From IMG/VR virus record IMGVR_UViG_3300028840_000942, positions 1-52,175 of that record: a DNA stretch of 52,175 nt; one strand, 5' to 3'. Position 1 is the stretch's first letter. Every line of letters begins with the position of its first letter. Shown here in pieces: positions 21,653-46,122 of the stretch. The notes beneath the pieces were generated by a model. It was not told the origin of the DNA. It saw only the letters and a program-made list of their open reading frames with translations, and did no database searches. The DNA comes from a virus. Lineage: Duplodnaviria > Caudoviricetes. The translations under genes were made by a program, and so were the position numbers.

Positions 21653-21862
21653 ATGCACATTATCATTAAAGGTGGGGACCACGACAGAAAAATATTTGGT
21701 AAGACTCGTGCGGAACAGGAAGAGAATTGGAGAAAGGAAGGATTCCGCAGTATGACAGATGAGCAGTTGGATAAGCTGAAATTTGCCGAAAAAAAAATAT
21801 GCGACAAAACGGGAAAGAATGCTGGCTTCCTTCGAGGTCAGGACATAGATAAAGTGAAATAA
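21653..21862 (+). CDS. Hypothetical protein
   Basis: GGAGG RBS, ATG 21653. Confidence 0.6.
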   Translation: MHIIIKGGDHDRKIFGKTRAEQEENWRKEGFRSMTDEQLDKLKFAEKKICDKTGKNAGFLRGQDIDKVK

Positions 21863-22215
21863 TGGCATACAAGATAGCTTATCATAATGCAGTAGCTAAT
21901 CTTTTGACGGGGGTAGGTGTACAGGCTACCGTAACGGTTTATGATGCCAACACAGAGGATTTGAGTACACTCTATCAAAACACAGGGGGTGCTACTGCCT
22001 CCAATCCAATCTCCACTGATCCTTATGGTAGGTTTGTCTTCTACGCTGACCCAGGTTTGTATGATTTGGAAATATCGGGGGAAGGTATAACTACATACAC
22101 CCTAGAAGATGTAAGTATTATGCCTGTTTCCTCACCGCCCGATGGCACATATCGGGTAACGAATTTATTTGTTCGACCACAAGGCACAAAGCTAGAGGTC
22201 GAGTACGAGACTTAA
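21862..22215 (+). CDS. Tailspike head-binding-like domain protein
   Basis: VTVY...LY.....NP..TD..G.F.FYA..G.YD motif. Confidence 0.65.
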   Translation: MAYKIAYHNAVANLLTGVGVQATVTVYDANTEDLSTLYQNTGGATASNPISTDPYGRFVFYADPGLYDLEISGEGITTYTLEDVSIMPVSSPPDGTYRVTNLFVRPQGTKLEVEYET

Positions 22216-22227
22216 TAGGAGAGCCAT

Positions 22228-22605
22228 ATGGCGATTCAATCAATGCAATTAGATCCCAATGCACAAGCATATACGGATGATGAGATTGTCGGGAAAGTCA
22301 ATGCAGCTTCAGCGAATATTACGAGAGCAGGCTGTATTGAAGGGACCGCTGCTTCGGCATTAGATACTGACGATATTAGTGAGGGTTCCAGTAACCTTTA
22401 TGATACTGGCGCACCCCCGACTGATAATGAAGTAGTGACGGCAATTAACAATGCCTCCAACGCTATTACTAGGGAAGCGGCACTCAGTCAGGACGACTTA
22501 AACATCGTTAAGACTAATCCTTCTGCTGGTGAATACTATGTGAAGAATATCCATAGAGATTCAACTGGTAAGTTGGATATTGAGTATGATGACGTTTCGG
22601 CGTAA
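22228..22605 (+). CDS. Fibre-like virion protein with internal repeat
   Basis: TDDISEGSSNLY motif; duplicated TD.E.V..(V/I)N.AS..ITR. Confidence 0.6.
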   Translation: MAIQSMQLDPNAQAYTDDEIVGKVNAASANITRAGCIEGTAASALDTDDISEGSSNLYDTGAPPTDNEVVTAINNASNAITREAALSQDDLNIVKTNPSAGEYYVKNIHRDSTGKLDIEYDDVSA

Positions 22606-22937
22606 TGGCAATAACGTCTGAACAGATTGCTCATTCTGAGCTAGTGGGGGGTAGTACTACTACCCTCCATAGCCATTCAGGTGGGGGGAGTGTTGACTAC
22701 AAGGCTGGTTCCACTACCACGAATTCAAGTGGGGTGGCTACTGTGACGTTTACTACGGCATTTTCAGATGCCAATTATGCGATTTTGTTGACCCCTCAGA
22801 ACCCATCTGATGCTGTGATGGCATCATACGACAGTAAGGCGACTACGGGGTTTGGTATTCAAACACATGAGGACAAGGGACAGACGCAGGGAAGTGTCAC
22901 GGTGGATTGGTTAGCAATAGGATATAGCGACCCGTAA
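22605..22937 (+). CDS. Fibre tip (gp53-like/H-type lectin-like) domain protein
   Basis: TVTFTTAFSDANY...TTGF...VDWLAIG. Confidence 0.7.
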   Translation: MAITSEQIAHSELVGGSTTTLHSHSGGGSVDYKAGSTTTNSSGVATVTFTTAFSDANYAILLTPQNPSDAVMASYDSKATTGFGIQTHEDKGQTQGSVTVDWLAIGYSDP

Positions 22938-23203
22938 TGTCTATTATTGTTGGATTAGTTCATAAGATTTACGTACTTGTCCGCCATGTGGCACAGGATG
23001 CCAACTTGCCCTTGGCGATTAGCAGTATCGTAGATTTCGGGCTAAATCTATCCACTTCAGTAAGTAAGTCATTATCTCTTCGGACGGAGAAGGATTTTAA
23101 TGTGTCCTGTAGCACGGAAGTAAATAAGGCATTATCGTGCTCAACGACAGTCAGTTTTAACCTTGAGGTCTGTCAGGGGCAATCATTCAATTTAGAGGCT
23201 TAA
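22937..23203 (+). CDS. Hypothetical virion-associated protein
   Basis: Translationally coupled ORF with ~10-aa periodic repeats. Confidence 0.55.
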   Translation: MSIIVGLVHKIYVLVRHVAQDANLPLAISSIVDFGLNLSTSVSKSLSLRTEKDFNVSCSTEVNKALSCSTTVSFNLEVCQGQSFNLEA

Positions 23204-23204
23204 C

Positions 23205-23519
23205 ATGGCAGAACCGATTCATATAGATGATACAGGCACGGGACTCATTTTTACCGTTAGTGCAAATGAGGAAGTGATGGACTTGTCGGCGGCAACAACC
23301 AAGGAAATCATCTTTGATAAGCCAAAGACAAACAATGTAATTACTAAGCCTGCGGTGTTTGTGACTGATGGTACGGATGGGAAAGTCAAGTATGTATCTG
23401 AATCAGACTTTTTTGACATAAGGGGGAAGTGGAAGGCTCAAGGGCATTTCGTGTTCCCTACAGGAGAATGGCATACCAGTATTGTTGAATTTGAGGTAGC
23501 ACATAATTTATCGGAGTAA
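23205..23519 (+). CDS. BppU N-terminal-like Ig-fold protein
   Basis: DLS.AT..I...KP......TDG.DG...Y....D....G.W..Q motif. Confidence 0.7.
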   Translation: MAEPIHIDDTGTGLIFTVSANEEVMDLSAATTKEIIFDKPKTNNVITKPAVFVTDGTDGKVKYVSESDFFDIRGKWKAQGHFVFPTGEWHTSIVEFEVAHNLSE

Positions 23520-23521
23520 GA

Positions 23522-23896
23522 ATGGCAGTATGGACGGAAACTGAAGATACGTATTCAGGGCTAGAGGCAAACTTTAGTCCAACCTGTTTTTTCCACCCTG
23601 ATACAGAGATGTACTTGTGGGACATCAAGCACCTGAATTTCAAGATGCACGAAGACCAGGAAGATGAACCGTGGAGTTTCGCTACAGACGTAGTGGTACA
23701 TTGCCCGCTTTGTGAGTACGAGGACATTTACGGCGTGGCAATAAGTCCAGAGCATCACGACAGGATGTGGAAAAAGAACGAATGGATGATGTTTGAGAAC
23801 ATGGTAGCACGGGAATGGAAGAGAAGACCGTGGCTCGTAGTGAGGGGATTTTTTACATGGCTGATACGAAGAATCAAGATGAAGCAACCAAGTTGA
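23522..23896 (+). CDS. Zn-binding hypothetical protein (paralog A)
   Basis: W..T...G....F...C..H...M...HCPLC...GV. Confidence 0.65.
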   Translation: MAVWTETEDTYSGLEANFSPTCFFHPDTEMYLWDIKHLNFKMHEDQEDEPWSFATDVVVHCPLCEYEDIYGVAISPEHHDRMWKKNEWMMFENMVAREWKRRPWLVVRGFFTWLIRRIKMKQPS

Positions 23897-24327
23897 CACC
23901 CGCTTGGGAACGCACCAACGATATTCAGGGACATAAGCCCAAATTTAATGTGATTTGCGGTAGGTGCAAGCAATCGTTAGGCACAGAAACAAAAATGCAA
24001 ATTAGGCATTCGGTACTCAGGTTGAGTGTGAATGCACAGAAAGAGATTATGTTCAAGGAACACCCACCGAAAGAACCGTGGGAACCTGATAAGGAAACAT
24101 TCGACCCTGAAATTAATCTCAATATTATGTCTTACAAATGCCCGCATTGTGCATGGTTCATCAGGTTCTATGTGCAGGATTCGCGGGAGTACATTCAGGA
24201 ATTATTCAAAAAACGCCAGTACAGTATCAAGTATATCCCGTTATGGGAAACCGATGAGATGAGTGAAGAAGAACTCAAGGAGGTTGAACGTCAATTAGTT
24301 GCGTATGGCTACTGGGCTGGTAGATAA
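23857..24327 (+). CDS. Zn-binding hypothetical protein (paralog B)
   Basis: W..T...G..PKF...CGRC...M...KCPHC; GAGGGG RBS before ATG 23857. Confidence 0.65.
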   Translation: MADTKNQDEATKLTPAWERTNDIQGHKPKFNVICGRCKQSLGTETKMQIRHSVLRLSVNAQKEIMFKEHPPKEPWEPDKETFDPEINLNIMSYKCPHCAWFIRFYVQDSREYIQELFKKRQYSIKYIPLWETDEMSEEELKEVERQLVAYGYWAGR

Positions 24328-24348
24328 GGAAGAGAAGAGGAGAGAAGA

Positions 24349-24690
24349 ATGGCAAATGACGCACTGGTTCAAGGGGGAAAGCTGCCGATAAGAACATATG
24401 AACAATTTAAAGAAATAGATCAGAAGGTTACTCAGGTTGGTACTACAGCAGGGGCAGTACCCGCAACGGCGATGACGAACCGCAAGGGGATATTTGTTTT
24501 TAATGCGGAGTCATCTGGCACATATGTTTATTTAGGGAATTCTGATGTTACCGCTAATGAAACGGCGGGTACAGGCGGATTCAAACTTGACGGTGGAAGC
24601 ACTATGTTTCTGACGCTAGATGGCAGTTGTACGCTTTATGGAAGGGCGGCATCAGGAACAGTCACGGTCCACACATTAGAGGTGAAGTAA
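24349..24690 (+). CDS. Small beta-sandwich virion protein
   Basis: NRK....FN....VYLG...V.....GF.L..G pattern. Confidence 0.6.
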   Translation: MANDALVQGGKLPIRTYEQFKEIDQKVTQVGTTAGAVPATAMTNRKGIFVFNAESSGTYVYLGNSDVTANETAGTGGFKLDGGSTMFLTLDGSCTLYGRAASGTVTVHTLEVK

Positions 24691-24691
24691 G

Positions 24692-25081
24692 ATGGGCGGC
24701 TACGTTAGTAGCGCAAGTGGCACTTCATCGGGAGCAGGCAATACGATAACTGTTACCGCCAAAACGGATGACTATACGGTGACTACGGCTGATATGGAGA
24801 TTGATAAAGCATTGTCTATGAACTCGGCTAGTGACAAGACTTTTACATTGCCCTCAGTTGGGGCTTCTGATGTTGGCATTTCTTGTACATTTATTAAGTT
24901 GGGTGCAGGCAAAGTTACTATTGATGCCTCAGATTCGGATACCATCCATGATGGTTCGGCGGGTGGCACAGTGTATAACGACCAAGCTGGGGAAACATAT
25001 GCAACCATTACCCTCATGCTTACAGGAACAACTCAATGGAGTATTATCAATTCCAGTGGACTTGGATGGGTCACGACATAG
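24692..25081 (+). CDS. Tail fibre domain protein
   Basis: KT.DYT.T..D...TFTLP.......G......K...G.VTI pattern. Confidence 0.65.
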   Translation: MGGYVSSASGTSSGAGNTITVTAKTDDYTVTTADMEIDKALSMNSASDKTFTLPSVGASDVGISCTFIKLGAGKVTIDASDSDTIHDGSAGGTVYNDQAGETYATITLMLTGTTQWSIINSSGLGWVTT

Positions 25082-25090
25082 GGGTATGAG

Positions 25091-25990
25091 ATGAAAAAGA
25101 TATTTCAAATAGGAATTTTAGTAGCGGGGCTATCTGTCTTTGTTTGGGGGCAAAATGCTCTCATGCGTATTATCGGATTCGATACAGATGACAGTAACTA
25201 CATTGAGATTGTCTGGAATGAGGATGACAGTTCTAACCGAGTGCTGAATATCAAGGTCAACTCCGGTAATAGAACCTTGGATATGAACGAAGGTCTAACC
25301 ATTGGTGATGGCAACGATGGGACTCTGACTTACTCGGCGGCATCTAAGACATTAACGGTTGAGGATAATGCTACAGTTAGTCAGGACTACAGTTCTGATG
25401 CTACGCCGACTTTTGCGGGGATAACCCTTGATAGTGGGTCTGGTGGCGACTTGAGGATTCATGACTCTGACCAGAGTAATTATACATCTATCACACAGGC
25501 TGCTATTGCTGGCAATCTGTCACTTGTTTTGCCTGCAACAGATGGTAATTCTGGAGATGTGTTTACCACGAATGGGAGTGGAACTACGTCATGGGCAGAT
25601 CCCGACACATTGGTGTACAAGAATGTCATTCTCAAGGTGATGGCAGAGGATACCGTTGTGACCTCTGGTGACGGGAAAATGTACTTCACTGTTCCTGCTG
25701 AATTAGCTGGATTCGATGTAGTGTCTGTTGAGTGTCATGTTTATACGGTAGATGCAGCCAATGATGTTGAAGTAGATATTTACAATCTGACCCAAACGGC
25801 TGACGTAATGTCGGATGCTCAGAATATCCAAGCTAATGAGAATGATAGCCTGACCTCAGATGACAGGGGAACGATAGATACGAGTGAAGATGATTTAACA
25901 TCCGGTGATGTATTAAGGGTAGATGTGAGCCTGTATGCAGGTTCGGCTGCGAAAGGATTAGAGGTTCGATTAGGGTTACTGAAACCGTAA
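25091..25990 (+). CDS. Fibre-like protein with N-terminal signal peptide
   Basis: MKKIFQIGILVAGLSVFVWG-Q; LPATDGNSGDV.TTNGSGT.SW fibre motif; C-terminal GD.LRVD...AKGL.V. Confidence 0.7.
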   Translation: MKKIFQIGILVAGLSVFVWGQNALMRIIGFDTDDSNYIEIVWNEDDSSNRVLNIKVNSGNRTLDMNEGLTIGDGNDGTLTYSAASKTLTVEDNATVSQDYSSDATPTFAGITLDSGSGGDLRIHDSDQSNYTSITQAAIAGNLSLVLPATDGNSGDVFTTNGSGTTSWADPDTLVYKNVILKVMAEDTVVTSGDGKMYFTVPAELAGFDVVSVECHVYTVDAANDVEVDIYNLTQTADVMSDAQNIQANENDSLTSDDRGTIDTSEDDLTSGDVLRVDVSLYAGSAAKGLEVRLGLLKP

Positions 25991-26000
25991 GGAGTAGAAG

Positions 26001-27221
26001 ATGCTGACGAAGTGGTACGGAAAGCAGGGCTTACTGTGGTGCATGTTGTTCAATGCGTGGTTGGTGTGGGGAATCTGTTTTATGTTGGTTCATCCCGTGT
26101 ATGCGGCATGGAAAAGTGGATATGGTTACCGGAAACAGTTTACGATTCAGGGAGATAACCTTGCCTCGAATGTAACTCAGTTTCCGTTGTTGGTGGATAT
26201 ATCCGATGGCGATATAGATGACCACTGTGATGATGATGGCACGGGGTCATGGGATATTATGTTTACCCAGTCGGATGGTACGACTGACCTTGATATTGAT
26301 TGGATAGATTATTCGGAATCGGGGGGTAACGCCTTAATTACCTGTTATGTTTCTCAGGCAAGTTGGGAGATTAGTTCAGACGGTTCGACTACGGGGTATC
26401 TCTACTATGGGAATGCTTCCGCAGGCGACCCTAATACAGCCAATGGAGTCTGGGATTCCAACTATATCGCTGTTTGGCATATGGATGAGGCGAGTGGAAC
26501 AATCTATGATTCTGCTGATGCGACAACTAGCCATGATTCTACCGTAAACACTATCACAGCCTATCAGCAAACAGGCAAAATTCATTGGTGTGTCGATATG
26601 GACGGAACAGATGACGAGATAAACTTCGCTGACCATGCCGAGTTCACGGTAACGGATGTCACGGTTGAGGGATGGGTGTATATAGATACATGGCAAGATA
26701 ACGAGGACTTTTTCAGTTGGTTTGATGACACTTCAGATGATGGGTTCAGATGGTTTGGAGTTGATGCTGCAAGTCCTGGCGAGATGAGGGTCTATGGAGA
26801 GGTTGCTGATAATTTAACGATTACCAATTCTGATACAGATGACTTGGTAACCGCAACTTGGACTCATTATGCGATGGTGCGGGACAGTGGAACATTTTAT
26901 ATGTACACCAACGGGGCAGTTGGTTCTGATTCTGATTCCAATGCTGGGGAGATTGATTCTTCGGATGTGATTACTATCGGTTCTGGGTATGACAACATTG
27001 ATTGGGCAGATGCCAAGTTTGAAGAATGGCGGTATTCCAATGCCGTGAGAAGTGCTGATTGGTTAGCGTTCCAATATGCCAATGTGAATGAAGCTGATGG
27101 TGAGCTTACATGGGGAGATGAAGAGTCTGGTTTTACCCCGAAAGTTATTATCATTGGCTATGTAGGTCAGGGTATATCTGGGTTTTTCCTTGTCCTCTTC
27201 AGGCGTAGAAAGAAAAAGTGA
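26001..27221 (+). CDS. DUF2341 + LamG/concanavalin-like lectin protein with signal peptide and C-terminal hydrophobic/basic tail
   Basis: W...Y.YRK..TI, FP.LV, DI.FT..DG.T.L, YLYYGN, VWHMDE; N-terminal ...PVYA-A; C-terminal VIIIGYVGQGISGFFLVLFRRRKKK. Confidence 0.8.
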   Translation: MLTKWYGKQGLLWCMLFNAWLVWGICFMLVHPVYAAWKSGYGYRKQFTIQGDNLASNVTQFPLLVDISDGDIDDHCDDDGTGSWDIMFTQSDGTTDLDIDWIDYSESGGNALITCYVSQASWEISSDGSTTGYLYYGNASAGDPNTANGVWDSNYIAVWHMDEASGTIYDSADATTSHDSTVNTITAYQQTGKIHWCVDMDGTDDEINFADHAEFTVTDVTVEGWVYIDTWQDNEDFFSWFDDTSDDGFRWFGVDAASPGEMRVYGEVADNLTITNSDTDDLVTATWTHYAMVRDSGTFYMYTNGAVGSDSDSNAGEIDSSDVITIGSGYDNIDWADAKFEEWRYSNAVRSADWLAFQYANVNEADGELTWGDEESGFTPKVIIIGYVGQGISGFFLVLFRRRKKK

Positions 27222-29965
27222 AACGCCTAGTCTTTTGTTTATTCCTGTTTTTACTTGGGTCATTTCTGTATGCTGATACCCATACTGCTGCGAGTCTGTC
27301 ACAATCAGATATTCAGGCTGCCATAGATGCCGCTGATGAGGGGGATTCGGTTCAACTGCCTGCGGGTACGTATTCCTCATTTAATGGTACAGTTACCATA
27401 AATGTTGCCAACCTGACAATCTATGGGCAGGGTAGTAGCTCTACAATCATCCAATCCAACACAGTACAAAATCAGAATGCTCCATTGTTTCTCATCGCTG
27501 CTGATGATGTGGAGATGAAGGATTTCCAGATAGATGGCTACCCTGTGGCTAGTGGCGTAGGGTGGGGTGTCAATATCAAAATAGAAGGTGGCACAAATTT
27601 TGACATCCACGACATGATAATTACGGATAATGATTTTGCGGGTATCTACGTGAAGGAATATCCCTGTGATGGGGTTATCTGGAACTGCACTATTACTGAC
27701 ATAGACTGTAACGGACTGGGTTATGGTGTCGCCCATTATGCTGAAGCATCTGGAGAATCTAGTGCTGCGGGAACGCAAGGTAATTTATCTCGAAGTGATG
27801 CCCTGGTTTTAGGTACGTCTGATGGTGTCTATATTGAGGATTGCACATTCACCAACTGTCGGCATTTTGTAACAGCACAGGCAGGCGGTAGGTATATCTT
27901 ACGCTACTGTACGCTAAATGCAAACTGGTCTATTGGCTCTATACAGGGGTTGGACACACATGGTCCTGACGAGTATGGGCGAGGCGGTAGGAAAATTGAG
28001 ATTTATGAGAATACCTATATCCGTACTGATGGTGGTAACGATTATTTCTTTATACTCTCGTCTGGTAGCGGTGTCATCTATAATAATACCATTACAGGGT
28101 TAGAGGCTGATTACCGATTTGGGTATATCTCCCATCCGTGCTGTACGGCCAATGATTGTTTAGATGCCTTCACCATCCGGTACACAGGGGCAGAGGCAAC
28201 CACTCTGACAATCTCTGGCAGTACCATGACCATAGATTGTACCAACGATACCTACGACCATACCATTGATTTATCTAATGCCAGTTATGACACATTCGCT
28301 GAATTAGTGGCGGCTATCAACGGGTATGATAATTACACCTGCACGATAACACATGAGAGGAATCAGCATCATGCTTCTACAGAATTATCCGCCATATCTG
28401 GTCAGGATATTCAATCGGCTAATTATATAGTCACGCATGACCAGCCTCTCAGGGATGAACTGGATGCCCTATATATCTGGGGTAATAAAGTTAATGGGGA
28501 ATCACACAATACTCCTCGACAGGTGAGTGCCTGTAATGATGAAGACGGCAATCCCTATTGGACGGTAAATGTTGAGTGGTTTGAATCAGAGATGCCACTT
28601 TACACGGCTTATACTTATCCACACCCAGCCAGAGAGTCTAGCCCTGCTGATACAGGATTTACATGGACTTCAGCAGATGATTCCAATAGTGCTGTAACAT
28701 CCATAAAGAACCAGTTTACGGAATCACCTCCAGGCGGTACGGAATGTAACGTCTGTTGGGCGTTTGCTACAGTAGCTTGTTTCGAGTCTGCTCTTATGCT
28801 TCCGAGTAGCGGTAGCGTTGGAGATCCTGGTAACACCATTGACTTGGCAGAGCAATTCCTTAAAGAGTGTCGCCAAGATGGATATGATGGGTGTAACAAC
28901 GGAACCATCCATCTGGGGTTTGGCATTATGAGTACACAGGGTATTGTGTTGGAGAGTTGCGAAGCCTTTACATTTACTGATGATGCTTGCAATGCAGGTA
29001 GTTGTTCTCCGCAATATCTATTGACGGGGTACAGGTATGGTGGTACTACGCCAGCGGCTATTAAGCAGAGTCTCTATGATTATGGTCCGATGGTTACGGA
29101 TATGGATGCTTCTTTTGACCTTGATGGGACCGCTCCGTTTGATACTTCGGATTTCATTTATAACTATGACGGTACTTGTGTCGCTTATCATAATGAAACA
29201 GAGAGTACGAACCATACAGTTCTGATTGTGGGGTATGGTGATAGTCCCAGAGATAGGTGTTCTAGTGGTTCTAGTACAGACTACTGGATAGTTAAAAACA
29301 GTTTTGGAACCAGTTGGGGGTCTAGCGGATATTTTTACATGGATGCGTATAGAAGTGGAGGCACAAACCACGATGCCAATGTAGGCTCTGGGGCATGGTA
29401 CATCAGTAATTGGGAAACATGGGATTCCAGCCGTGTTATCAATTATTATGATGAGAGTGGTTGGGGCACACAGATAGGCGGGGCGACTACTTATTATGGG
29501 TTATGCAAATACACGGCATCTCAGCATCAGTCGGTGGATGCTGTTATGTTCTATGCGCCTAATGGTGAGTCCTGCACCTACACCATTTATATTTACGACT
29601 CATTTGATGGTACGGACCTGGGGAGTGAGTTAACCTCTCAGAGTTCTACCATATCGAATGCGGGGCTTTATACGATTTATTTGGATTCCCCGCAGAATTT
29701 CAATAAAGATGACCAGATTGTAGTGGTTCTCAAGATGGTCTATTCCACATATACCACACCAATAGCGATAGATGATGACACCACATCCAACGAATCAGGC
29801 AAATGCTATGTGAGTGCTACGGGGGCTTCTGGAACATGGACTGATGTTGGCAGTTCCAATTCGGCAGATGTTTGTTTACGGACATTGGGTGAGAGTCAGG
29901 GCGCTGTCATTATAGGTGGTACACAGAGCATCAAGGGAACGGTAATTATCAAGGAAGAAAAATGA
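27218..29965 (+). CDS. Signal peptide + beta-helix + papain-family (C1A) cysteine peptidase + lectin-like domain
   Basis: MKRLVFCLFLFLLGSFLYA-D; IQAAIDAA..GD.V.LPAGTY; catalytic set KNQ, CWAF, NHTVLIVGYG, YWIVKNSFGTSWG..GYF; YYDESGW lectin-like start. Confidence 0.88.
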   Translation: MKRLVFCLFLFLLGSFLYADTHTAASLSQSDIQAAIDAADEGDSVQLPAGTYSSFNGTVTINVANLTIYGQGSSSTIIQSNTVQNQNAPLFLIAADDVEMKDFQIDGYPVASGVGWGVNIKIEGGTNFDIHDMIITDNDFAGIYVKEYPCDGVIWNCTITDIDCNGLGYGVAHYAEASGESSAAGTQGNLSRSDALVLGTSDGVYIEDCTFTNCRHFVTAQAGGRYILRYCTLNANWSIGSIQGLDTHGPDEYGRGGRKIEIYENTYIRTDGGNDYFFILSSGSGVIYNNTITGLEADYRFGYISHPCCTANDCLDAFTIRYTGAEATTLTISGSTMTIDCTNDTYDHTIDLSNASYDTFAELVAAINGYDNYTCTITHERNQHHASTELSAISGQDIQSANYIVTHDQPLRDELDALYIWGNKVNGESHNTPRQVSACNDEDGNPYWTVNVEWFESEMPLYTAYTYPHPARESSPADTGFTWTSADDSNSAVTSIKNQFTESPPGGTECNVCWAFATVACFESALMLPSSGSVGDPGNTIDLAEQFLKECRQDGYDGCNNGTIHLGFGIMSTQGIVLESCEAFTFTDDACNAGSCSPQYLLTGYRYGGTTPAAIKQSLYDYGPMVTDMDASFDLDGTAPFDTSDFIYNYDGTCVAYHNETESTNHTVLIVGYGDSPRDRCSSGSSTDYWIVKNSFGTSWGSSGYFYMDAYRSGGTNHDANVGSGAWYISNWETWDSSRVINYYDESGWGTQIGGATTYYGLCKYTASQHQSVDAVMFYAPNGESCTYTIYIYDSFDGTDLGSELTSQSSTISNAGLYTIYLDSPQNFNKDDQIVVVLKMVYSTYTTPIAIDDDTTSNESGKCYVSATGASGTWTDVGSSNSADVCLRTLGESQGAVIIGGTQSIKGTVIIKEEK

Positions 29966-30135
29966 CAATCTTGGACACAAGCACACCGCTGAAAATCAAG
30001 CACATTATCATTGTTTTCATCGCCGCCAGCGTTATATTTTTTGGGTATTCAATGTATAAACAGGTAAAACTCAATCAAAACAATATTGAGGTCATGGTTG
30101 AGTTTCTACAAAAGGCGAGTCAGCCACAGAAATGA
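29962..30135 (+). CDS. 57-aa single-TM protein
   Basis: Manual translation MTILDTSTPLKIKHIIIVFIAASVIFFGYSMYKQVK...; ATGA overlaps at both ends. Confidence 0.65.
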   Translation: MTILDTSTPLKIKHIIIVFIAASVIFFGYSMYKQVKLNQNNIEVMVEFLQKASQPQK

Positions 30136-30797
30136 AACTAGGCGACCCTCCCAAGACTCACGAAAACCTTGATGAGAAGTGGTATGAGTGTTACCTGTGC
30201 GGGGGTGCCCATACCGCTGCTACTGATTTATTGACGAATGGTGATTTTACCTCTGCCACCACAGGGTGGACAGCAGGGAACTCAGCATCCCTCAGTAGCA
30301 CAACAGGCGGCACATTCAGTAGCAACTGCCTGACTATTACTGAGGCGGGGGTAGATACTCCGCAGGCTTACCAGACGGTAACGGTGGTAGCGGAAACTGG
30401 GCATAAGATAGATTATTGGGAAAAGCGTGGTACCGCATATAAGTACCGAGTGCGTGTTTATGACGCTACCAATGGGGCGGACATAACCTCTACAGCGTGG
30501 AAAGACGGGAGTGAAGACTGGGCAGGACATACAATCCGTTTTGTTACTCCGGCATCCTGCGTGAGTGCAACCGTGTACTTAGAACATAATGGAATCTCTG
30601 GGGATACTACCACGTTCCAGTTTGACAGAGTTTACCTGTACGGCGACCACGGAGAATCAGCGCCCCAGTATCCAGAATCCATGACGATACTGGCGACTGA
30701 AGACGGGCATAGGTACTGCCTGGACCATTACCATTGGCGATTCCACCATAAAGCCATAGATGATACGGAAATAGAAATTTCAGACGATTTGGAGTGA
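30132..30797 (+). CDS. Carbohydrate-binding (CBM4/9-like) domain inserted in a Zn-finger protein
   Basis: CYLC, then LL.NGDF....GW...FD.V.L, then YCLDH. Confidence 0.65.
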   Translation: MKLGDPPKTHENLDEKWYECYLCGGAHTAATDLLTNGDFTSATTGWTAGNSASLSSTTGGTFSSNCLTITEAGVDTPQAYQTVTVVAETGHKIDYWEKRGTAYKYRVRVYDATNGADITSTAWKDGSEDWAGHTIRFVTPASCVSATVYLEHNGISGDTTTFQFDRVYLYGDHGESAPQYPESMTILATEDGHRYCLDHYHWRFHHKAIDDTEIEISDDLE

Positions 30798-30800
30798 TAA

Positions 30801-31136
30801 GTGAAGTTACCTGAAGAAGAGAAAGTAGAGCAGTTAGAGCCTGAAGATTTAAAGTTACGCCCGGTTGATAAGTATTTATTTGTTGAGTTAGACCCGAAAC
30901 ATGAGAAGGCGGGGGAGATTTGGTTATCTCAGAAACAAAATCAACCTACAAGGGTTGCGACAATTAAGGCTATCGGTCCCAATGTGGATGTTGACAGATA
31001 CAAGTACAAAGTCGGGGATAAGATAGTCATTGATTTTTGGGCGGGGCATAACATAAGACTGCCCAAGTATAAGATATTTGAAGGAACCCACAAAATGGTA
31101 CCAGAGAATGAGATATGGTCCTTCATAGACGAATAG
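30801..31136 (+). CDS. groES: Co-chaperonin GroES-like protein
   Basis: LRPVDKYLFVE...GEIWL...AIGP.V...KVGDKI...ENEI. Confidence 0.8.
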   Translation: MKLPEEEKVEQLEPEDLKLRPVDKYLFVELDPKHEKAGEIWLSQKQNQPTRVATIKAIGPNVDVDRYKYKVGDKIVIDFWAGHNIRLPKYKIFEGTHKMVPENEIWSFIDE

Positions 31137-31146
31137 GGGGATAGAT

Positions 31147-31818
31147 GTGGGTGTTAAGACATTCGCCGTTTTTAAAACGGATTTACTGTTAGAACTCGGT
31201 CAGCGGGACGACCTAGATTCATACACAGGCGGATTCGTTAATGCCGCCTATATGAAGATTTGCACTCAGGATAGATTCTGGGGACTCCGCAAGTCTTTCA
31301 ATTTCCCCGAATTGGATGCTAGTGATACATCTCAGGCAACAACCGATGGTACGGCTTATGTTGATGTGCCGTCTGATGCCTTATTGATATACACCGTTTT
31401 TGATGAAACGAATAACACTAAATTAAAGAATATCAGTAAGCGGAGATACTGGAGTTATGACGATAGGGATACCGCTACCGCAGAGGGGGAACCTACGGAA
31501 TGGGTAAGGATAGGGGATTACATCTATTTATACCCGACTCCTGATGATGAGTACGACTTGGATATTCTTTACCGGAAACGCCCCACTCTTTTGACGGGTA
31601 CGGGTGCAACGGTACTCGGTGATGAATGGGATGAGATTATCCTTCAGACGGCGGTAATCATCGCCCACATGAAACTGGGGGAGTTTGATAAAGCGGAAGC
31701 CAAGAAAGCGGAATGGCTGGATGCTGTTGGTGGGTTAATCGGCATCTATGACCAGGAAGAGTTGGACAGGAAAGATATACGTAGTTTGAACTACGGGTAC
31801 AAGAATCGTAAATACTAA
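31147..31818 (+). CDS. Head-tail adaptor protein
   Basis: G.P..W......LYPTPD..Y.L...Y...P..L motif. Confidence 0.75.
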   Translation: MGVKTFAVFKTDLLLELGQRDDLDSYTGGFVNAAYMKICTQDRFWGLRKSFNFPELDASDTSQATTDGTAYVDVPSDALLIYTVFDETNNTKLKNISKRRYWSYDDRDTATAEGEPTEWVRIGDYIYLYPTPDDEYDLDILYRKRPTLLTGTGATVLGDEWDEIILQTAVIIAHMKLGEFDKAEAKKAEWLDAVGGLIGIYDQEELDRKDIRSLNYGYKNRKY

Positions 31819-33590
31819 TGCCTAGACGAAAGTATGTTATCCGCCCGATAGGGGCAAGTGTAGATGAAAGTGTTGACCCCTTTCTGTTGCCTGCGGGTTA
31901 TGGTGCGTGGGGTACTGAGAATATCAAGATTGACCGCCATGTAGCTAAGAAGCGGTGGGGGTACACTCAGGATAGAAGTGCTGGGTTTGTTTATGGTATT
32001 GCCGATTTTAACCTAAAAGATGGCACGACATACAATCTGTTTTTTAACCTGTATGACCTTTGTTGTCGCAAGACAGGTGGTAGTGAAACCTATTCGTACA
32101 TTACAGAAACCTTAAACTACGATGCTAAAATTGACTCTATTACGGATGCCGCCAATTCTGTAGTTACCTTCAAGGCAGGCACCACTATCCAGAGTGATGG
32201 AGCAGCGGCAGGTGATGCATTTATTTTAGATGATGACCACACCCCCAATGCGGAAGACGATACGGCATGGTTGGCTATTAAGACGGTTGATGGCGAAACT
32301 CAGTGTACCTTAGATGGGAACTATGCAACTAACGGCACGACTGGCTCATGGACCGGTTCAGAGAAGAGTGGGCTAATCCGCCAGAAATACAATTATGATG
32401 TACCTACCGATGCGGATGGGGGATGTGGGGAATACCGATGGAATTGGGCTGTTGTAGATGATAAGTTCTGTTTTACCAATCAAGGTGTAGATGTTCAATA
32501 CTGGGCAGGTACAGGGTATGCCGCCGCACTCGATTCCACTAATGCCAAAGGTGCTAAATACTGTATTGAGTACGCAGACAGATTGGTACTCGCCAATACC
32601 GAGGAAAGTGGCAACCGTTCACCTACGACTGTACGGTGGTCTAAGAATGGCGACCCTACCGACTGGACAGACTCCACAGCGGGGTCGGTAGATTTGCTGG
32701 AGAGTGAAGAGGCAATAACGGGGCTTGGTAAAGTTGGTAATGACCTAGTTGTTTTCAAGCGAAATTCTATTGTATTCGGTAGCCGTAGCGGCATATCAAC
32801 ATCACCTATTATTTTCCCACGGCAGATAGCGGGTATCGGGTGTATTGCACCTTATTCTATTGTTCATGCAATGGGTACTGTCTGGTGGGTAGGGGCTGAC
32901 AATATTTACAAGATGGTAGGCTCACAACCTGTGCCAGTAGGTGGTTTGAACTCTCAGATTAGAAATAAAATATTTGATAATTATGTTGCCGCTTCAATGG
33001 TGGGTCATACTGTCGGGGCACACAATCCTATTGAGCATGAAATTCTGTGGTCTTTTGAGCTTTCTGGTCCTGACATTATGATTGTAGCCTATGATTACAT
33101 AAATGACAATTGGAATGTCTATGACTTAGCCGACAATATGTTGTCTGGTGGGAAGTGGTATATCTCAGGGGACAGGTTCTATATCGGCGGTCATACCAAT
33201 AGTATCTGTAGAGTATTAAGTACGACCCGCAACGATAATAGTACCGCAATAGCCTCCACATGGCAGACGGGTATCACCGACTTCTCAGACCAAGACCCTG
33301 CAGCACATGGAAGATGGAAGACTGTTTATGGGGCAAGACTCATCTACCGTGATAAGACTACCAATGCGGTGTTCGTGGGTTCTATACGCCCTGATGGTGG
33401 CTCATGGACGGATGACTCTGAAACGGTTGGTACTGCCAGCGATGATGTCAAGTCGATAGACTTCCATTGGATTAAGACGGCACATACCTTTGACTTTAAA
33501 CTTTATAACAGTTCGGCTACCGCCAACTTTGAGTGGCTGTCATTAGAGATATTCTATGAACTTGGGGGAGAGTTCTTTAACGTATCATGA
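31818..33590 (+). CDS. Tail nozzle / P22 gp10-like packaged DNA stabilisation protein
   Basis: Beta-propeller; VRWS...DP.DW, LVVFK..SI, IGCIAP.SI motifs. Confidence 0.8.
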   Translation: MPRRKYVIRPIGASVDESVDPFLLPAGYGAWGTENIKIDRHVAKKRWGYTQDRSAGFVYGIADFNLKDGTTYNLFFNLYDLCCRKTGGSETYSYITETLNYDAKIDSITDAANSVVTFKAGTTIQSDGAAAGDAFILDDDHTPNAEDDTAWLAIKTVDGETQCTLDGNYATNGTTGSWTGSEKSGLIRQKYNYDVPTDADGGCGEYRWNWAVVDDKFCFTNQGVDVQYWAGTGYAAALDSTNAKGAKYCIEYADRLVLANTEESGNRSPTTVRWSKNGDPTDWTDSTAGSVDLLESEEAITGLGKVGNDLVVFKRNSIVFGSRSGISTSPIIFPRQIAGIGCIAPYSIVHAMGTVWWVGADNIYKMVGSQPVPVGGLNSQIRNKIFDNYVAASMVGHTVGAHNPIEHEILWSFELSGPDIMIVAYDYINDNWNVYDLADNMLSGGKWYISGDRFYIGGHTNSICRVLSTTRNDNSTAIASTWQTGITDFSDQDPAAHGRWKTVYGARLIYRDKTTNAVFVGSIRPDGGSWTDDSETVGTASDDVKSIDFHWIKTAHTFDFKLYNSSATANFEWLSLEIFYELGGEFFNVS

Positions 33591-34189
33591 CCATCGAGCG
33601 TGTTCGACAATTTGAGTATCCCTTCGGGATAGATGACCCGAAGATACACCGCTATCTTGAGTATCTTTACCGTGCCTTACAGGAAGAAGCGGTACAGCGG
33701 ATTGAGGACATTGAGAACGAGTTATCCCTGCATCTCAATACGACTCATCATGTACCCAAGACGCTTATTGGTGCGAGTGCTTATGCGGCTGTTGACCAAG
33801 AGAACCTTACGGATGCGACACTGACTAAAGTTACCCTTGGCACAGAAGAGTATGACTTGGGTGCTGATTTCGCAGGTAGTAAATTTACTGCCCCGATTGC
33901 CGGTTATTACCATGTATCCGGTCAGGTAAGGTTTAAAAATATTGTAGCGGATAAGCGGTATGCAGCTTGCATATATGAAGGCGGGGACACAGAAGAAGCA
34001 TTGGCAATTAGTCATACTGGGGCAGACACCAACCCGATTGCTGTGCCTGTGAGTAAGACTATTTACCTCGCTGCTAGTGAGTACGTTGAATTATACGCCG
34101 CTGTCCATTGCGGGGTAAACACGGTAGATATTGCGGGCGGCAACAAGGAAGACACATTTATGAGTGTTCATCTATTGAGTGCGGCGTAA
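33587..34189 (+). CDS. Tail protein with C-terminal C1q-like domain
   Basis: FTAPIAGYYHVSGQV...L...EYVEL. Confidence 0.7.
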   Translation: MTIERVRQFEYPFGIDDPKIHRYLEYLYRALQEEAVQRIEDIENELSLHLNTTHHVPKTLIGASAYAAVDQENLTDATLTKVTLGTEEYDLGADFAGSKFTAPIAGYYHVSGQVRFKNIVADKRYAACIYEGGDTEEALAISHTGADTNPIAVPVSKTIYLAASEYVELYAAVHCGVNTVDIAGGNKEDTFMSVHLLSAA

Positions 34190-34608
34190 TGGGTATAATT
34201 TACGTGGCTAAGTACATACTCAGGTCTGAGTACCAGTGTAAGTGCTGTGCTGGTTTACCGCCCAGTTACACAGAACCGTATGATACATCGTTTGAAACAT
34301 TGTTTGATAGTTTTGCTCTCATACGAGAGCGATGGGGTACACCCCTTAACATAACGTCAGGGTATCGGTGTCCACGGCATAACGCCTCCATAGGTGGATA
34401 CCGCCTGTCGATGCATCAGTGGGGCTTGGCTTTAGATATAGACGTAGAGGATAGTCAAGTAGCCACTTTACATAACATTATTGAAGACGTAGCTCCTGAC
34501 CTGAGAGTGGGTAGATACCCAGGCTTCATTCATATTGATGTAGCCTATTTTGTTTACCCGAAAGCCAGTGAATCATGGCAGAAGGGCTACAGATGGAGAG
34601 AAATATGA
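34189..34608 (+). CDS. Peptidase M15A endolysin
   Basis: ITSGYRC..HN..IGG...S.H..GLA.DI...FIHID; start ATG 34189 overlaps the upstream TAA. Confidence 0.9.
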   Translation: MGIIYVAKYILRSEYQCKCCAGLPPSYTEPYDTSFETLFDSFALIRERWGTPLNITSGYRCPRHNASIGGYRLSMHQWGLALDIDVEDSQVATLHNIIEDVAPDLRVGRYPGFIHIDVAYFVYPKASESWQKGYRWREI

Positions 34609-42679: not shown

Positions 42680-43522
42680 GTGCGTAAACTTGTGTACTGT
42701 AGCATTATCTTAGCCATGTTATTCAGCGTAGGCTGTACACAACGTCCCACACCTTACTTTGCCCCGCCTAGCGTTGTTGAAAACGCTTACAACCACATAG
42801 TATCTATCGCTGTTTACTACTATATGCCACAGGAAGAATGGGAAAAGCGTATGTATGTGGATGATGGGATACCTAAAGAGGACATAGCGACTGACTCTCA
42901 CATAGGGGACAAGCCAATAAAATGCGTGGCTTACATAGGTAGCGGTACTCTAATGCGGGATAACCATGTTATTACTGTCCGCCATTTATTTGACCACAAT
43001 GAGAACACTTATGACCGTAAGATATGGGTGTTTCATCAGCAGGTTGACCACCCCATCGAGGCTGACCTTATCGCTATTACTGAGAAGAAGGTTGACGAAG
43101 ATTATTATAACGATTACGCCTGCATTAAACTGAGGGAGAACCTTGGTTACCCCGGGCTGACTGTAGCCCGGCAAAATCCCAAGCTAGGTGAGAAGGTTCT
43201 GTTTGGATGTAGTGTCGGGGGTACCGCATACTTTCTCAGGTTCGGTGTGGTGAGCCATTTTAAATGGTACTTCCGCAAGGATGATGAGGGTAGGCTACAC
43301 CTGTCCCATTGGGTTGGGTATCAATTCACGACCGTATCCCCGTCAGGTCCAGGTGACTCAGGGTCATCAATCATCAATACTCATGGGCAGATAGTGGGGA
43401 TAATTTATATCGGGGTAAACATTTACGAACAGATGTATAGCTTCTCGAATCCGGTGGAGATGTTGTGGGAATTTTTAGACGAACACCACTTAAAATACTT
43501 GGCTTATCCCTGTATGGATTAA
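42680..43522 (+). CDS. Trypsin-like (S1) serine protease lipoprotein
   Basis: Lipobox SVG-C; catalytic triad TVRH, NDYA, GDSGS. Confidence 0.85.
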   Translation: MRKLVYCSIILAMLFSVGCTQRPTPYFAPPSVVENAYNHIVSIAVYYYMPQEEWEKRMYVDDGIPKEDIATDSHIGDKPIKCVAYIGSGTLMRDNHVITVRHLFDHNENTYDRKIWVFHQQVDHPIEADLIAITEKKVDEDYYNDYACIKLRENLGYPGLTVARQNPKLGEKVLFGCSVGGTAYFLRFGVVSHFKWYFRKDDEGRLHLSHWVGYQFTTVSPSGPGDSGSSIINTHGQIVGIIYIGVNIYEQMYSFSNPVEMLWEFLDEHHLKYLAYPCMD

Positions 43523-43815
43523 TCCTTATTGGGTGTACCCAGATTAATTCTAATGCACCCCGAAGACTGAGTCCGGAATGGTGGGACATAAGGCAGGCGA
43601 GGCAGGAAAGGCATGAGTTACCGAACATCTACATTGTATTCAATGACCATCAGTTGGCTTGGGTGTATAACGATGGTGTTCGGTTCACCAATTCGGAGTT
43701 TAAGGAATACATACATGGCCTGGCGTTTGTACAGGGATGTAAAAAAATACGATTCCGTTATGGAATCAACGTACATCGGGAAAGGATAATCAGATATGCA
43801 GTTATCTATTATTAA
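43465..43815 (+). CDS. Putative lipoprotein
   Basis: RR + hydrophobic stretch + LIG-C lipobox; overlaps the 3' end of the protease gene. Confidence 0.55.
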   Translation: MGIFRRTPLKILGLSLYGLILIGCTQINSNAPRRLSPEWWDIRQARQERHELPNIYIVFNDHQLAWVYNDGVRFTNSEFKEYIHGLAFVQGCKKIRFRYGINVHRERIIRYAVIYY

Positions 43816-43945
43816 GTTAGTTGGTCCCGCCTTTGTCGCTTCCCTTATTCTATTACTCTTAGATAGCGTGGGGGTACCGCTTGAGTTCATTATTGCTGGC
43901 GCTCTATTTGTGGGATGGGTGCTGGGCAGGACTGTAGAAGTATGA
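43796..43945 (+). CDS. 49-aa two-TM protein (holin candidate)
   Basis: Manual translation MQLSIIKLVGPAFVASLILLLLDSVGVPLEFIIAGALFVGWVLGRTVEV; ATGA overlap with the next gene. Confidence 0.6.
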   Translation: MQLSIIKLVGPAFVASLILLLLDSVGVPLEFIIAGALFVGWVLGRTVEV

Positions 43946-44127
43946 GCGAACCGCTTGACAAGGAAACATTTGAAACATGGAAGAATGAGGTATTCGATAA
44001 GTTTGTTACCAACGAGTTTTGCCACCTGAGAGATAAGGTGGACTGGATATTCAAGATGCTTATCGGCAACCTCATAGGAGTAATACTGACACTTGCGGGC
44101 ATACTGTTCGCCCTCATGGTGAAATAA
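43942..44127 (+). CDS. Small protein with C-terminal TM (XhlA/holin-like)
   Basis: N...HL..KVDW + hydrophobic tail; start ATG 43942. Confidence 0.6.
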   Translation: MSEPLDKETFETWKNEVFDKFVTNEFCHLRDKVDWIFKMLIGNLIGVILTLAGILFALMVK

Positions 44128-44498: not shown

Positions 44499-46122
44499 TG
44501 TTAAGTTCTTTCACCAGTTAAGCGATTCCGACCAGGATGAATGGTTATTCGAACGCTCCGCTTGTGACCAGTCCTTTTATTATTTTACCCGCCAAATGGG
44601 GGGCTACCTCCCCAAGTCAGGCGGCGACCTCTCAGATTTAATCCATAAACCCATATGTGATTGGTGGCAGGACAACTCTATCATACGGAAGTTCTGCTAT
44701 ATGCCCCGTGACTGGCGTAAGACTACGGTACTTACCCGCTGGGCAAACATATGGCGTTACCTACAAAACAACGAAGTCCGTATCCTCATAGCATCCCAGA
44801 AACTTGATAAGCCTATTGAGTGGATTAAATGGATGCAGAAGATTGTACTCACCCATGAACGCTTACGGTGGCAGTACCCCATACTGTTGCAAGTAACCCG
44901 TGCCTATACCAAGTCATGCGGCACATGGTCACAGGCTGACTGTTTACTCCCCCGAATCGGGCACTACCCTGAACCCACATGGAAGGGGATAGGGATAACA
45001 GGTGCAGCTCAAGGTGGTCACTATGACTTCGTACACCCTGACGACATGATAGGGGAGAAGGGCATGGAAAGTCAAACTATTATGGAAGACGCTCTGAGAT
45101 GGTTCGATAATATTGATGAGTTACTAGACCAGCCTATCGCTACCCTGCCTCAACCCAGTATCATAACCGGAGTTGGGACACACTGGGCACAGGGCGACCA
45201 GGGGTGCTACATCCAACAGAACTATAGAGAGTACCAATGGAAGATTGTCCCCGCCCTCAAAGACAACCTGATGGACTCAGATAATATCGAGTGGGTGCAA
45301 AACCCTAACGTAGCCAACGGGGAAAGTAACTGGGAAGAATGGTTCACCACTGACTACTACAAGAAGATGCTCGCTAACCCTGAAAAAGCCATGGTGTTCT
45401 ACTGTCAGCATCAGAATAACCCATCCCAATCAGGCGGGGGACTGAATAAGTTTGACCCGACATGGATACGTTACTACCGCTTTGATGAGAGGGAGGACGG
45501 CAGGTACGTAGTCTGTGAAGATGACGGGCAGGAGTTCAAGTTATCCGCCATTCAACTATACGGCATGATAGATCCTGGTGGGTTCGCTGAAGTCAAAGCT
45601 ATCAAGGCGGGTAGTCGTAACGCATTAGTTATCGGTGGGCAGCCGTTTGGATCGGTAAAGAAATTCATAGTCCATGCCTGGGCGAAAAGGTTTCAAGACC
45701 CTGATGTATTCATGGATGCTTTATTTACCGCGCATGATGAGTTTAGACCGAGGGTATGGCGTATAGATACCGCAGCACAGCAACCATATATTTATAAGGA
45801 TATTCAAACTGAAGCGAAGAAACGCGGGACCGCACTCCGCATTACTCCTTTAACCCCAGATACGAGAAGGGATTCTAAAGACGCTGACATACAGTCGTTG
45901 ATAAATCCCTTCTTTAATGGGGAGTTCTATTTACATAGGTCAATGAAGGATTTTATTGGTGAGTACAGCAGTTACCCGACTGGGTTTACTGTTGATTTAC
46001 TGGATTGTGCGGGCAAACTTAATGTCAACTACTGGCATAGGAAGGAACGGCAGGAACCGCGTAAGAAGAAAGTGGTAACGATTGCAGCACATGAAGGCAG
46101 AAGTCAAGTTACGGGGTACTAA
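44482..46122 (+). CDS. terL: Terminase large subunit
   Basis: Walker A-like MPRDWRKTT, Walker B GGHYDFVHPDD, GT.W coupling motif, Q..N.P, nuclease IDPGG and D.LD. Confidence 0.9.
   Translation: MLNQVDVKFFHQLSDSDQDEWLFERSACDQSFYYFTRQMGGYLPKSGGDLSDLIHKPICDWWQDNSIIRKFCYMPRDWRKTTVLTRWANIWRYLQNNEVRILIASQKLDKPIEWIKWMQKIVLTHERLRWQYPILLQVTRAYTKSCGTWSQADCLLPRIGHYPEPTWKGIGITGAAQGGHYDFVHPDDMIGEKGMESQTIMEDALRWFDNIDELLDQPIATLPQPSIITGVGTHWAQGDQGCYIQQNYREYQWKIVPALKDNLMDSDNIEWVQNPNVANGESNWEEWFTTDYYKKMLANPEKAMVFYCQHQNNPSQSGGGLNKFDPTWIRYYRFDEREDGRYVVCEDDGQEFKLSAIQLYGMIDPGGFAEVKAIKAGSRNALVIGGQPFGSVKKFIVHAWAKRFQDPDVFMDALFTAHDEFRPRVWRIDTAAQQPYIYKDIQTEAKKRGTALRITPLTPDTRRDSKDADIQSLINPFFNGEFYLHRSMKDFIGEYSSYPTGFTVDLLDCAGKLNVNYWHRKERQEPRKKKVVTIAAHEGRSQVTGY

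Follow-up and report, generated by a model that had tools for sequence, protein, structure and literature searches.

A predicted Sec-exported fibre, lectin and protease module in the late operon of an uncultured SU10-like podovirus

The IMG/VR record IMGVR_UViG_3300028840_000942 is a complete single-contig virus record of an uncultured SU10-like podovirus, and its whole length of 52,175 bp forms the window analysed here. At positions 25091–30135, on the + strand that carries the late genes, lie four consecutive genes encoding a fibre-like protein of 299 amino acids (aa), a lectin of 406 aa, a three-domain enzyme of 915 aa and a small membrane protein of 57 aa. The first three begin with predicted Sec-type signal peptides, referred to below as leaders. 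An earlier note made from the sequence alone had drawn attention to these genes as exported "tail-fibre" genes, and the open reading frame (ORF) coordinates and N-termini that it quoted for the genes starting at 25091, 26001 and 27218 were confirmed on the sequence. Its description of the set as translationally coupled within the virion operon was borne out for the operon, and for three of the five junctions, where a 4-nt overlap joins the starts at 27218, 29962 and 30132 to the stop of the gene before; the other two junctions have gaps of 9–10 nt.

The first gene (25091–25990, +) has an ATG start preceded by a ribosome-binding site (AGGGG) and encodes the predicted exported fibre-like protein. 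Residues 1–20 (25091–25150) form the leader, with a predicted cut between VWG and QN. An AlphaFold2 (AF2) model built on a 49-row alignment places behind it a shaft with repeats (residues ~25–175), modelled as extended, low-structure coil, and a C-terminal jelly-roll knob (residues 176–299; 25616–25987) with a predicted local distance difference test score (pLDDT) of ~98. The protein has no Pfam, PHROG or NCBIfam match, and its modules recur very widely, with 3881 representatives at E ≤ 1e-3. Foldseek comparison of the model with BFVD gave 179 matches at E ≤ 1e-3, headed by phage collagen-repeat and tail-fibre proteins, and comparison with the PDB gave generic jelly rolls only, the best being a capsid chain of cyanophage Pam1 (9e-4). 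Judged by its modelled shaft and knob, the protein is fibre-like. Leaders are present on its nearest relatives, P0184 (52% identity over residues 3–99), P0158, P0160, P0166 and P0156, as well as on P0027, and our own rule for leaders (described below) finds one in 26 of the 140 best new representatives of the family. The first residue behind the predicted cut is Gln in the 299-aa protein, as it is in many leader-bearing relatives (P0027, P0156, P0158, P0160, P0166, P0188, P0199, P0258, P0273 and others); Gln at this position is typical of Bacteroidota signal-peptidase-I substrates.

The second gene (26001–27221, +) starts with ATG, 7 nt behind a strong Shine-Dalgarno (SD) site, AAGGAG, and encodes the predicted exported lectin. 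Its leader (residues 1–35; 26001–26105; predicted cut between VYA and AW) is followed by a DUF2341-like N-domain and then by a LamG domain at residues 201–354 (26601–27062; Laminin_G_3, PF13385, 5e-15, 56.4 bits). The LamG half of the DUF2341-LamG architecture claimed earlier therefore stands in the protein itself, whereas PF10102 (DUF2341) has no match there and is found only on homologues, many of which align over the N-domain. In all 13 close homologues (39–48% identity; P0080–P0092) a leader is followed by the start AW-x-GY-x-[YH]-RK. Across the family alignment LamG is the most variable stretch, and both ends are conserved: the tail ...P-[KR]-[VI]-III is common to all 14 aligned sequences, with I383–I385 invariant. 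In four of the 14 (the 406-aa protein and three of its 13 relatives) this tail runs into ~17–20 hydrophobic residues and RR(R)KK(K), represented here by a hydrophobic segment at residues 381–401 (27141–27203, from hydropathy) and RRRKKK. Such a C-terminus has the layout of a stop-transfer anchor, and the 406-aa protein would therefore be a type I membrane protein with its lectin outside.

The wider family provides a view of where the mature protein begins. Among 50 distinct DUF2341-LamG proteins on IMG/VR contigs, ~27 begin with M-[AG]-[WF]..., that is, at the predicted mature end, a count in which a few of the 27 direct starts depend on our own regular expression and choice of start codon. 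Strongly hydrophobic N-termini are present in eight of the 50, two of which (loci L032 and L060) have the leader abutting the motif as in the 406-aa protein. The leaderless viral relatives end in short hydrophobic-basic tails. On viral contigs, 8 of 35 neighbours of leader-bearing LamG genes bear leaders by our own rule, as compared with 36 of 453 in the comparison set; the rule misses the leaders in L009, L020 and L060, and some loci may include host flank. This is only suggestive that leader-bearing LamG genes go with leader-bearing neighbours. One such IMG/VR contig (L032, 6919–13630) carries four adjacent leader-bearing genes, possibly in host flank. They include an adjacent pair, a BNR_4 and DUF2341 protein and a G8, CEMIP beta-helix and malectin protein, which might be the counterpart, on a different viral contig, of the exported lectin and glycanase described here.

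The third gene (27218–29965, +; GTG start) encodes a predicted exported enzyme with three domains behind a leader of 19 residues (27218–27274; predicted cut between LYA and DT). These are a right-handed beta-helix at residues 20–~475 (27275–28642; AF2 model and Foldseek), a papain-family protease (Peptidase_C1, PF00112) at residues 489–711 (28682–29350; Pfam 8.6e-30, 104.9 bits against a cut-off of 20.7) and a Lectin_like domain (PF18560) at residues 743–888 (29444–29881; Pfam 1e-20, 74.9 bits against a cut-off of 27). The earlier note had recognised the beta-helix and missed the other two domains. Its grouping of all three genes as adhesin or fibre genes suits the 299-aa protein, and the other two are better described as an anchored lectin and a three-domain enzyme. 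In the AF2 model of the 915-aa protein (pLDDT 76), the beta-helix matches alginate lyase (6kfn), GH87 glucanase, RbmB, Geobacillus virus E2 ORF18 and tailspikes with Foldseek E values between 1e-5 and 1e-3 and template modelling scores of only 0.2–0.4. The modelled helix is thus of a carbohydrate-active fold for which no specific family is nameable. Sequence matches of the protease part in the PDB are dipeptidyl peptidase I and cathepsins (~3e-19). Cys513, His666 and Asn694 align with the catalytic residues of dipeptidyl peptidase I, and the protease is predicted to be intact; an insert of eight residues lies between the oxyanion Gln and the catalytic Cys. The PF18560-type lectin part matched no PDB chain by sequence at E ≤ 0.1.

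The only full-length relative of the 915-aa protein is P0002 (1016 aa, 52% identity), in which 13 of the 19 leader residues are identical, the cut LYA before D is the same and the three catalytic residues are invariant. As had been claimed, the largest protein is Cys-rich: its 27 Cys (2.95%) represent the highest share in the late operon, and of the 26 that follow the leader, 16 are invariant in P0002. By eye, a hydrophobic leader is present in 10 of 11 fetched beta-helix homologues, which include secreted multidomain proteins with PKD and dockerin domains. In P0002, P0006, P0010 and P0011 the beta-helix directly follows the leader with the same first residues, and the leaderless P0005 starts exactly where the beta-helix domain of the leader-bearing homologues begins. 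Between beta-helix and protease, the 915-aa protein has ~15 residues where P0002 has an insert of ~100. The 915-aa C-terminus, ...KGTVIIKEEK (29930–29962), is similar to the tail of the 406-aa family, and the motif ...KG-x-V-[IT]-IKE occurs twice in P0002, after the beta-helix and at the C-terminal end, as if two tagged proteins had been fused. Such conserved C-terminal tails might serve as docking strands, as membrane tails or as sorting signals. The motif, hydrophobic stretch and basic end of the 406-aa tail only resemble sorting signals, and for C-terminal sorting signals (PEP-CTERM, LPXTG, the C-terminal domain of type IX secretion and others) neither the 406-aa nor the 915-aa protein had an NCBIfam match at E ≤ 1 or any in Pfam. 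P0002 and the 406-aa homologue P0080 each come from a 22,567-bp contig, so the 406/915 gene pair is probably conserved together in a relative.

The fourth gene (29962–30135, +) begins just before the 915-aa gene has ended and encodes the transmembrane protein of 57 aa that had been noted behind the three larger genes. It is predicted to cross the membrane once, through a single hydrophobic helix at residues ~15–31, and has no Pfam, PHROG or NCBIfam match. The product is a candidate partner, anchor or holin-like protein.

All three leaders have the features of signal-peptidase-I substrates, namely a basic n-region, a hydrophobic h-region and small residues at −3 and −1. The 299-aa leader has KK, 17 uncharged residues and V-W-G before Q; the 406-aa leader has K4 and K8, a long h-region and V-Y-A before A; and the 915-aa leader has KR, an h-region of 16 residues and L-Y-A before D. 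No lipobox was found in the three proteins, and lipoboxes were found in the products of 42680, 43465 and 47741. Applied to the 41 late-strand ORFs of at least 60 aa, our hydropathy and charge rule flags six: the three targets, the lipobox proteins 42680 and 43465, and 22937, which is small and doubtful. Three flagged genes would be adjacent in 6.7% of random placements of six among 41, so adjacency alone is weak evidence, and the decisive support comes from conservation. Leaders recur in all 13 close homologues of the 406-aa protein, in P0002 and on the nearest relatives of the 299-aa protein, and leaderless homologues on other phage contigs begin at the very points where cleavage is predicted. 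On these grounds the Sec-type leaders that had been proposed for the three consecutive genes are, as far as alignments can tell, real and conserved. Since they are conserved and placed exactly where leaderless homologues begin, we consider it very probable that the three proteins are exported through Sec, have their leaders cleaved and undergo oxidative folding outside the cytoplasm. Export with extracytoplasmic disulfide folding, as the earlier note had proposed, is thus the best reading.

The exported module lies inside the virion operon, as genes for a GroES-like co-chaperonin (30801–31136, +; Cpn10 1.5e-6; PHROG co-chaperonin GroES), an SU10-type adaptor (31147–31818, +; Pfam/PHROG) and a nozzle-like virion protein (31818–33590, +; Pfam/PHROG) are found just downstream. 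Immediately after the 57-aa gene, and coupled to it, is a gene for a leaderless protein of 221 aa with no family match (30132–30797, +). This protein has five Cys, among them a CxxC pair near its N-terminus, and its "NGDF...GW" start resembles a carbohydrate-binding module by eye only. Upstream are an SU10-type portal (15073, +; PF23899, 2.2e-22), a capsid protein (19467, +; family match) and, between the head genes and the module, a run of nine small fibre-like genes of 88–170 aa (21862–25081, +). Two leaderless products of this run have Pfam domains and PHROG matches to tail fibre/minor tail proteins, a Gp53-like tail-fibre C-terminal domain (22605–22937, +; 1.2e-9) and a BppU_N adaptor-type domain (23205–23519, +; 6e-7). 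Within the same run, the products of 21862 and 22228 have similar C-terminal ends, and the genes 23522–23896 and 23815–24327 overlap by 82 nt and encode many CxxC pairs.

Further downstream, a leaderless Peptidase_M15_3 (34108–34608, +; 9.9e-18) is set among the tail genes and is the sole recognisable wall hydrolase of the phage. Its ORF overlaps the end of 33587–34189, and its probable start is an internal ATG near 34189. Genes for large internal proteins follow on the + strand. A trypsin-like protease of 280 aa with a lipobox leader (42680, +) and a second lipobox protein of 116 aa (43465, +), whose gene overlaps the first by 58 nt, are followed by a protein of 70 aa that has a membrane helix at its C-terminus; the terminase genes come next, the large terminase lying at 44482 (+; family match). 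The genes at 42680–44127 (+) may form a cassette for lysis, or a spanin-like one, with an unusual make-up. On the − strand, a radical-SAM-type protein (46119–47102; phrog_24834, 3.6e-108) and a nucleoside 2-deoxyribosyltransferase-like protein (663–1091) are possible nucleotide or DNA modification functions. We found no tRNA in the 52,175 bp and no nucleotide match of the window to cultured phages. Protein-family searches of the window recognised no integrase or other lysogeny gene, and the phage looks lytic.

The reading that we slightly favour, and hold only tentatively, is that the four genes form a Sec-exported module whose products act on the host surface and do not belong to the virion, the second of the two fates offered in the earlier note. 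The three preproteins would, late in infection, cross the cytoplasmic membrane via Sec, signal peptidase I would cut after VWG, VYA and LYA, and the products would fold with disulfides outside the cytoplasm and act on the infected cell's own surface instead of being built into the particle. The C-terminal anchor would keep the 406-aa lectin on the membrane. The 915-aa enzyme would bind through its lectin domain, its beta-helix cutting surface glycan and its papain domain cutting a surface protein or one of surface-layer (S-layer) type, as Cwp84 does, and the 299-aa protein, as a trimeric-knob fibre, would bind a surface ligand. Receptors might thereby be stripped or masked, which would block superinfection and keep progeny off debris, and the leaderless M15 endolysin might find the outer layers already loosened when it opens the wall. 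Our slight preference for a role off the particle arises from the 406-aa anchor, the coupled 57-aa membrane protein, the secreted-enzyme architecture and the presence of leaderless fibre parts and a leaderless M15 peptidase, as a result of which neither infection nor lysis obviously needs the exported set.

Several observations weigh against action at the cell surface. The leader calls on which it builds derive from our own rule and from alignments, not from a trained predictor. At least nine of the 13 relatives of the 406-aa protein lack the anchor: eight end at ...III[RK], one three residues later and one 11 residues later. All three families also occur without leaders in many phage contigs, there like ordinary appendages, and the simplest assumption is that they have the same function here. 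The module genes have head genes on one side and neck genes on the other, no signal resembling a promoter or a terminator was found to set them off from the operon, and family searches recognised no other large receptor-binding protein or tailspike in the genome. In Cellulophaga phage phi46:3, discussed below, four leader-bearing neighbours are annotated "structural protein".

A second explanation, the first of the two fates offered in the earlier note, is assembly in two compartments, which we regard as possible yet not as what we would expect. The three proteins would be true virion appendages (distal fibre, lectin and depolymerase/protease spike) that mature outside the cytoplasm and dock when holin and endolysin merge the compartments, with the leaderless small fibre and adaptor proteins encoded upstream as sockets. 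Besides the common occurrence of leaderless homologues on viral contigs and the want of another recognisable large receptor-binding protein, the position of the genes in the appendage region, after the Gp53-like and BppU_N-type parts and before adaptor and nozzle, agrees with it. So do the match of the 299-aa fold to phage tail-fibre models and that of the beta-helix to tailspikes, among others. The tails ...PKVIII (406 aa) and ...KGTVIIKE (915 aa) could be docking strands, and leaderless relatives share C-terminal tails in weaker form. The docking partner, however, is only hypothetical, the membrane anchor of the 406-aa protein would need cutting off, and in a host with no outer membrane, soluble proteins would be lost or diluted after export. 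The leaders of phi46:3 gp079–082, annotated as structural, speak for two-compartment assembly, but the label was given by similarity to phi18:3, co-purifying envelope proteins are a known artefact, and no sequence similarity exists between that phage and this one. A fuller version, which we find doubtful, has head, neck and proximal fibre parts assembling in the cytoplasm. The distal gear for host recognition and for depolymerase and protease action would be Sec-exported, fold with disulfides outside, be retained there in part by the membrane anchor and the 57-aa membrane protein, and snap on via the short C-terminal strands at lysis. Since these families have leaders in some phages and none in others, such a route of assembly would be general and optional.

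It is improbable, in our estimate, that the proteins are exported lysis helpers, enzymes that their leaders keep at the membrane or beyond it up to holin triggering, the 299-aa leader with its Gly, Ala and Ser residues being the foremost case. The module would then be lysis machinery for layers other than peptidoglycan, by analogy with Sec-exported and signal-anchor-release (SAR) endolysins. The union of a glycan-lyase-like fold with an intact protease in the 915-aa protein, the small membrane protein coupled to its gene and the other exported candidates near the terminase (the trypsin-like lipobox protein 42680 and the lipobox protein 43465) would all suit such a function. Yet family searches found no peptidoglycan-hydrolase domain in any of the three proteins, and the genome encodes an M15 peptidase apart from them. 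Neither a lectin nor a fibre is a lysis enzyme, and the 406-aa and 915-aa leaders differ from SAR domains in their strong hydrophobicity and classic cleavage sites.

We likewise give little credence to an origin as host-derived surface genes of the auxiliary metabolic gene (AMG) type, according to which secreted adhesin and enzyme genes came from a host with their leaders, in a recombination-prone region, and alter adhesion or nutrition with no role in the particle or in exclusion. DUF2341-LamG relatives at 26–40% identity do occur in many bacterial and archaeal phyla (77 loci), and the repeats of the 299-aa protein recur in giant cellular proteins that bear leaders. PMC12911398 treats concanavalin/LamG genes of Patescibacteriota phages as adhesion AMGs. 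Against this, the G+C content of the module genes (0.44–0.45) is the same as that of the remaining operon, tight coupling joins them to virion genes, no separate transcription unit is apparent, and the 406/915 pair is conserved with a relative (P0002, P0080). As no integrase or lysogeny gene was recognised, there would also be little time for a metabolic benefit.

Least credible of all, and in our view very improbable, is that no export occurs and the hydrophobic N-termini are unused (the true starts lying downstream) or are chance features: adjacency alone has P ~0.07, the leader calls come from our own rule and alignments, and an in-frame Met at residue 25 of the 299-aa ORF, after the hydrophobic stretch, is the sole alternative start that skips that leader, but M25 is not conserved (no Met stands there in P0184 or P0158), the next Met of the 915-aa protein is ~100 residues in and inside a conserved domain, SD sites precede the long starts, and leaders are kept across homologues of 39–52% identity.

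A bacterial host that uses SD starts is indicated by the presence of RusA, a DnaB-like protein and YopX together with SD sites before 48 of the 84 genes. A Bacteroidota host with a type IX secretion tail was considered and rejected, given these SD sites and the lack of a match to C-terminal domain models. Also rejected was an archaeal host, or lysis by proteases for want of a peptidoglycan hydrolase, since Peptidase_M15_3 is present and RusA, the DnaB-like protein and YopX point to a bacterium. The host is indicated neither by the DUF2341-LamG relatives, which are spread over many phyla at 26–40% identity, nor by the Atlas matches of the terminase, all of which are viral. Single-protein scans of viral contigs returned no close relatives with gene context, and a metagenome scan returned seven distant loci, the contig of P0002 not among them. 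Among cultured phages, neither the 299-aa nor the 406-aa protein had a match, and the protease-lectin part matched only four unannotated faecal contigs.

In the textbook account, assembly of tailed phages takes place wholly in the cytoplasm. Phage proteins so far known to be exported comprise lysis enzymes and spanins as well as small lipoproteins for exclusion. In the present phage, conserved leaders, predicted to be cleavable, are carried by a fibre, a lectin and a glycan- and protein-cutting enzyme, all from families normally seen as particle appendages, and the set of phage proteins exported before lysis is thereby extended to fibre, lectin and depolymerase/protease gear. Should the proteins join the particle, they would represent a second assembly route, and one that explains the use of disulfide-rich receptor-binding gear. 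Should they stay off it, phages would remodel the surface of the infected cell with their own receptor-destroying enzymes. There is also a consequence for annotation, as such genes are routinely labelled "tail fibre" or "AMG" with the leader unmentioned. The enzyme that unites papain, lectin and beta-helix domains is furthermore a candidate tool for digesting surface layers.

The earlier note had seen in these genes the best candidate here for an undescribed system, and this survives in part. Full-text searches, at the level of listings and abstracts, returned no paper on leader-bearing fibre or spike genes of tailed phages, and the portions of PMC5723332 and PMC12014285 that were available contain nothing relevant on such genes. 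The public record of the cultured podovirus Cellulophaga phage phi46:3 (KC821622, Pachyviridae), however, has the same arrangement, apparently undiscussed: gp079–gp083 are five consecutive late genes, all with basic-hydrophobic leaders, and gp079–082 are annotated "structural protein" by similarity to phi18:3 gp85–87. The phi18:3 label reportedly goes back to mass spectrometry in the Cellulophaga virion proteomes of Holmfeldt and colleagues from 2013. In phi46:3, a cpn10 gene lies a few genes downstream of the leader genes, like the GroES-like gene here. The two phages differ in that phi46:3 shows no tblastn similarity to the late proteins of this phage (kinship with Pachyviridae was rejected for want of a tblastn match), has a Bacteroidota host and leaders that end in ...SQ or ...AQ, as against the SD sites before 48 of 84 genes here, and has no protease domain annotated.

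Individual parts of the module have counterparts elsewhere. The order of C1 and then PF18560 in the 915-aa protein is the domain pair of Cwp84, and we take PF18560 to have been built on the Cwp84 lectin-like domain. In Clostridioides difficile, Cwp84 is described as a secreted S-layer-processing cysteine protease with a papain/cathepsin-L-like and a lectin-like domain (PMC4089489). ESM Atlas clusters with the C1 and PF18560 pair score 0.93–0.94, and there the pair is commonest in Bacillota, a count based on few members of known phylum. Unlike Cwp84, the 915-aa protein is phage-encoded, has an N-terminal beta-helix and lacks cell-wall-binding (CWB2) repeats (no Pfam match) and a propeptide, at whose place P0002 has its propeptide-like insert. 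The right-handed parallel beta-helix itself is shared with tailspikes (Det7 gp208, KP32gp38, Geobacillus virus E2 ORF18) and with lyases (alginate lyase 6kfn, RbmB); in contrast to tailspikes, the 915-aa protein has a leader, with the beta-helix at once behind it, and no domain recognisable as serving attachment to the virion.

Sec-exported and SAR endolysins, the T5 lipoprotein Llp and Cor-type lipoproteins are phage proteins that cross the membrane before lysis and act on the envelope or block a receptor. They are peptidoglycan hydrolases or small lipoproteins, whereas the three proteins described here have neither a hydrolase domain of that kind nor a lipobox. The 406-aa protein shares its two-domain core and N-terminal motif with the DUF2341-LamG proteins, which include leaderless phage forms and pilin-type or leader-bearing forms of bacteria and archaea. 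A role at the cell surface has been proposed for the "concanavalin-like AMGs" of Patescibacteriota phages in PMC12911398. The 406-aa clade is set apart from these proteins by its predicted Sec leader and its conserved ...PKVIII tail, which continues in four of the 14 sequences into a putative membrane anchor.

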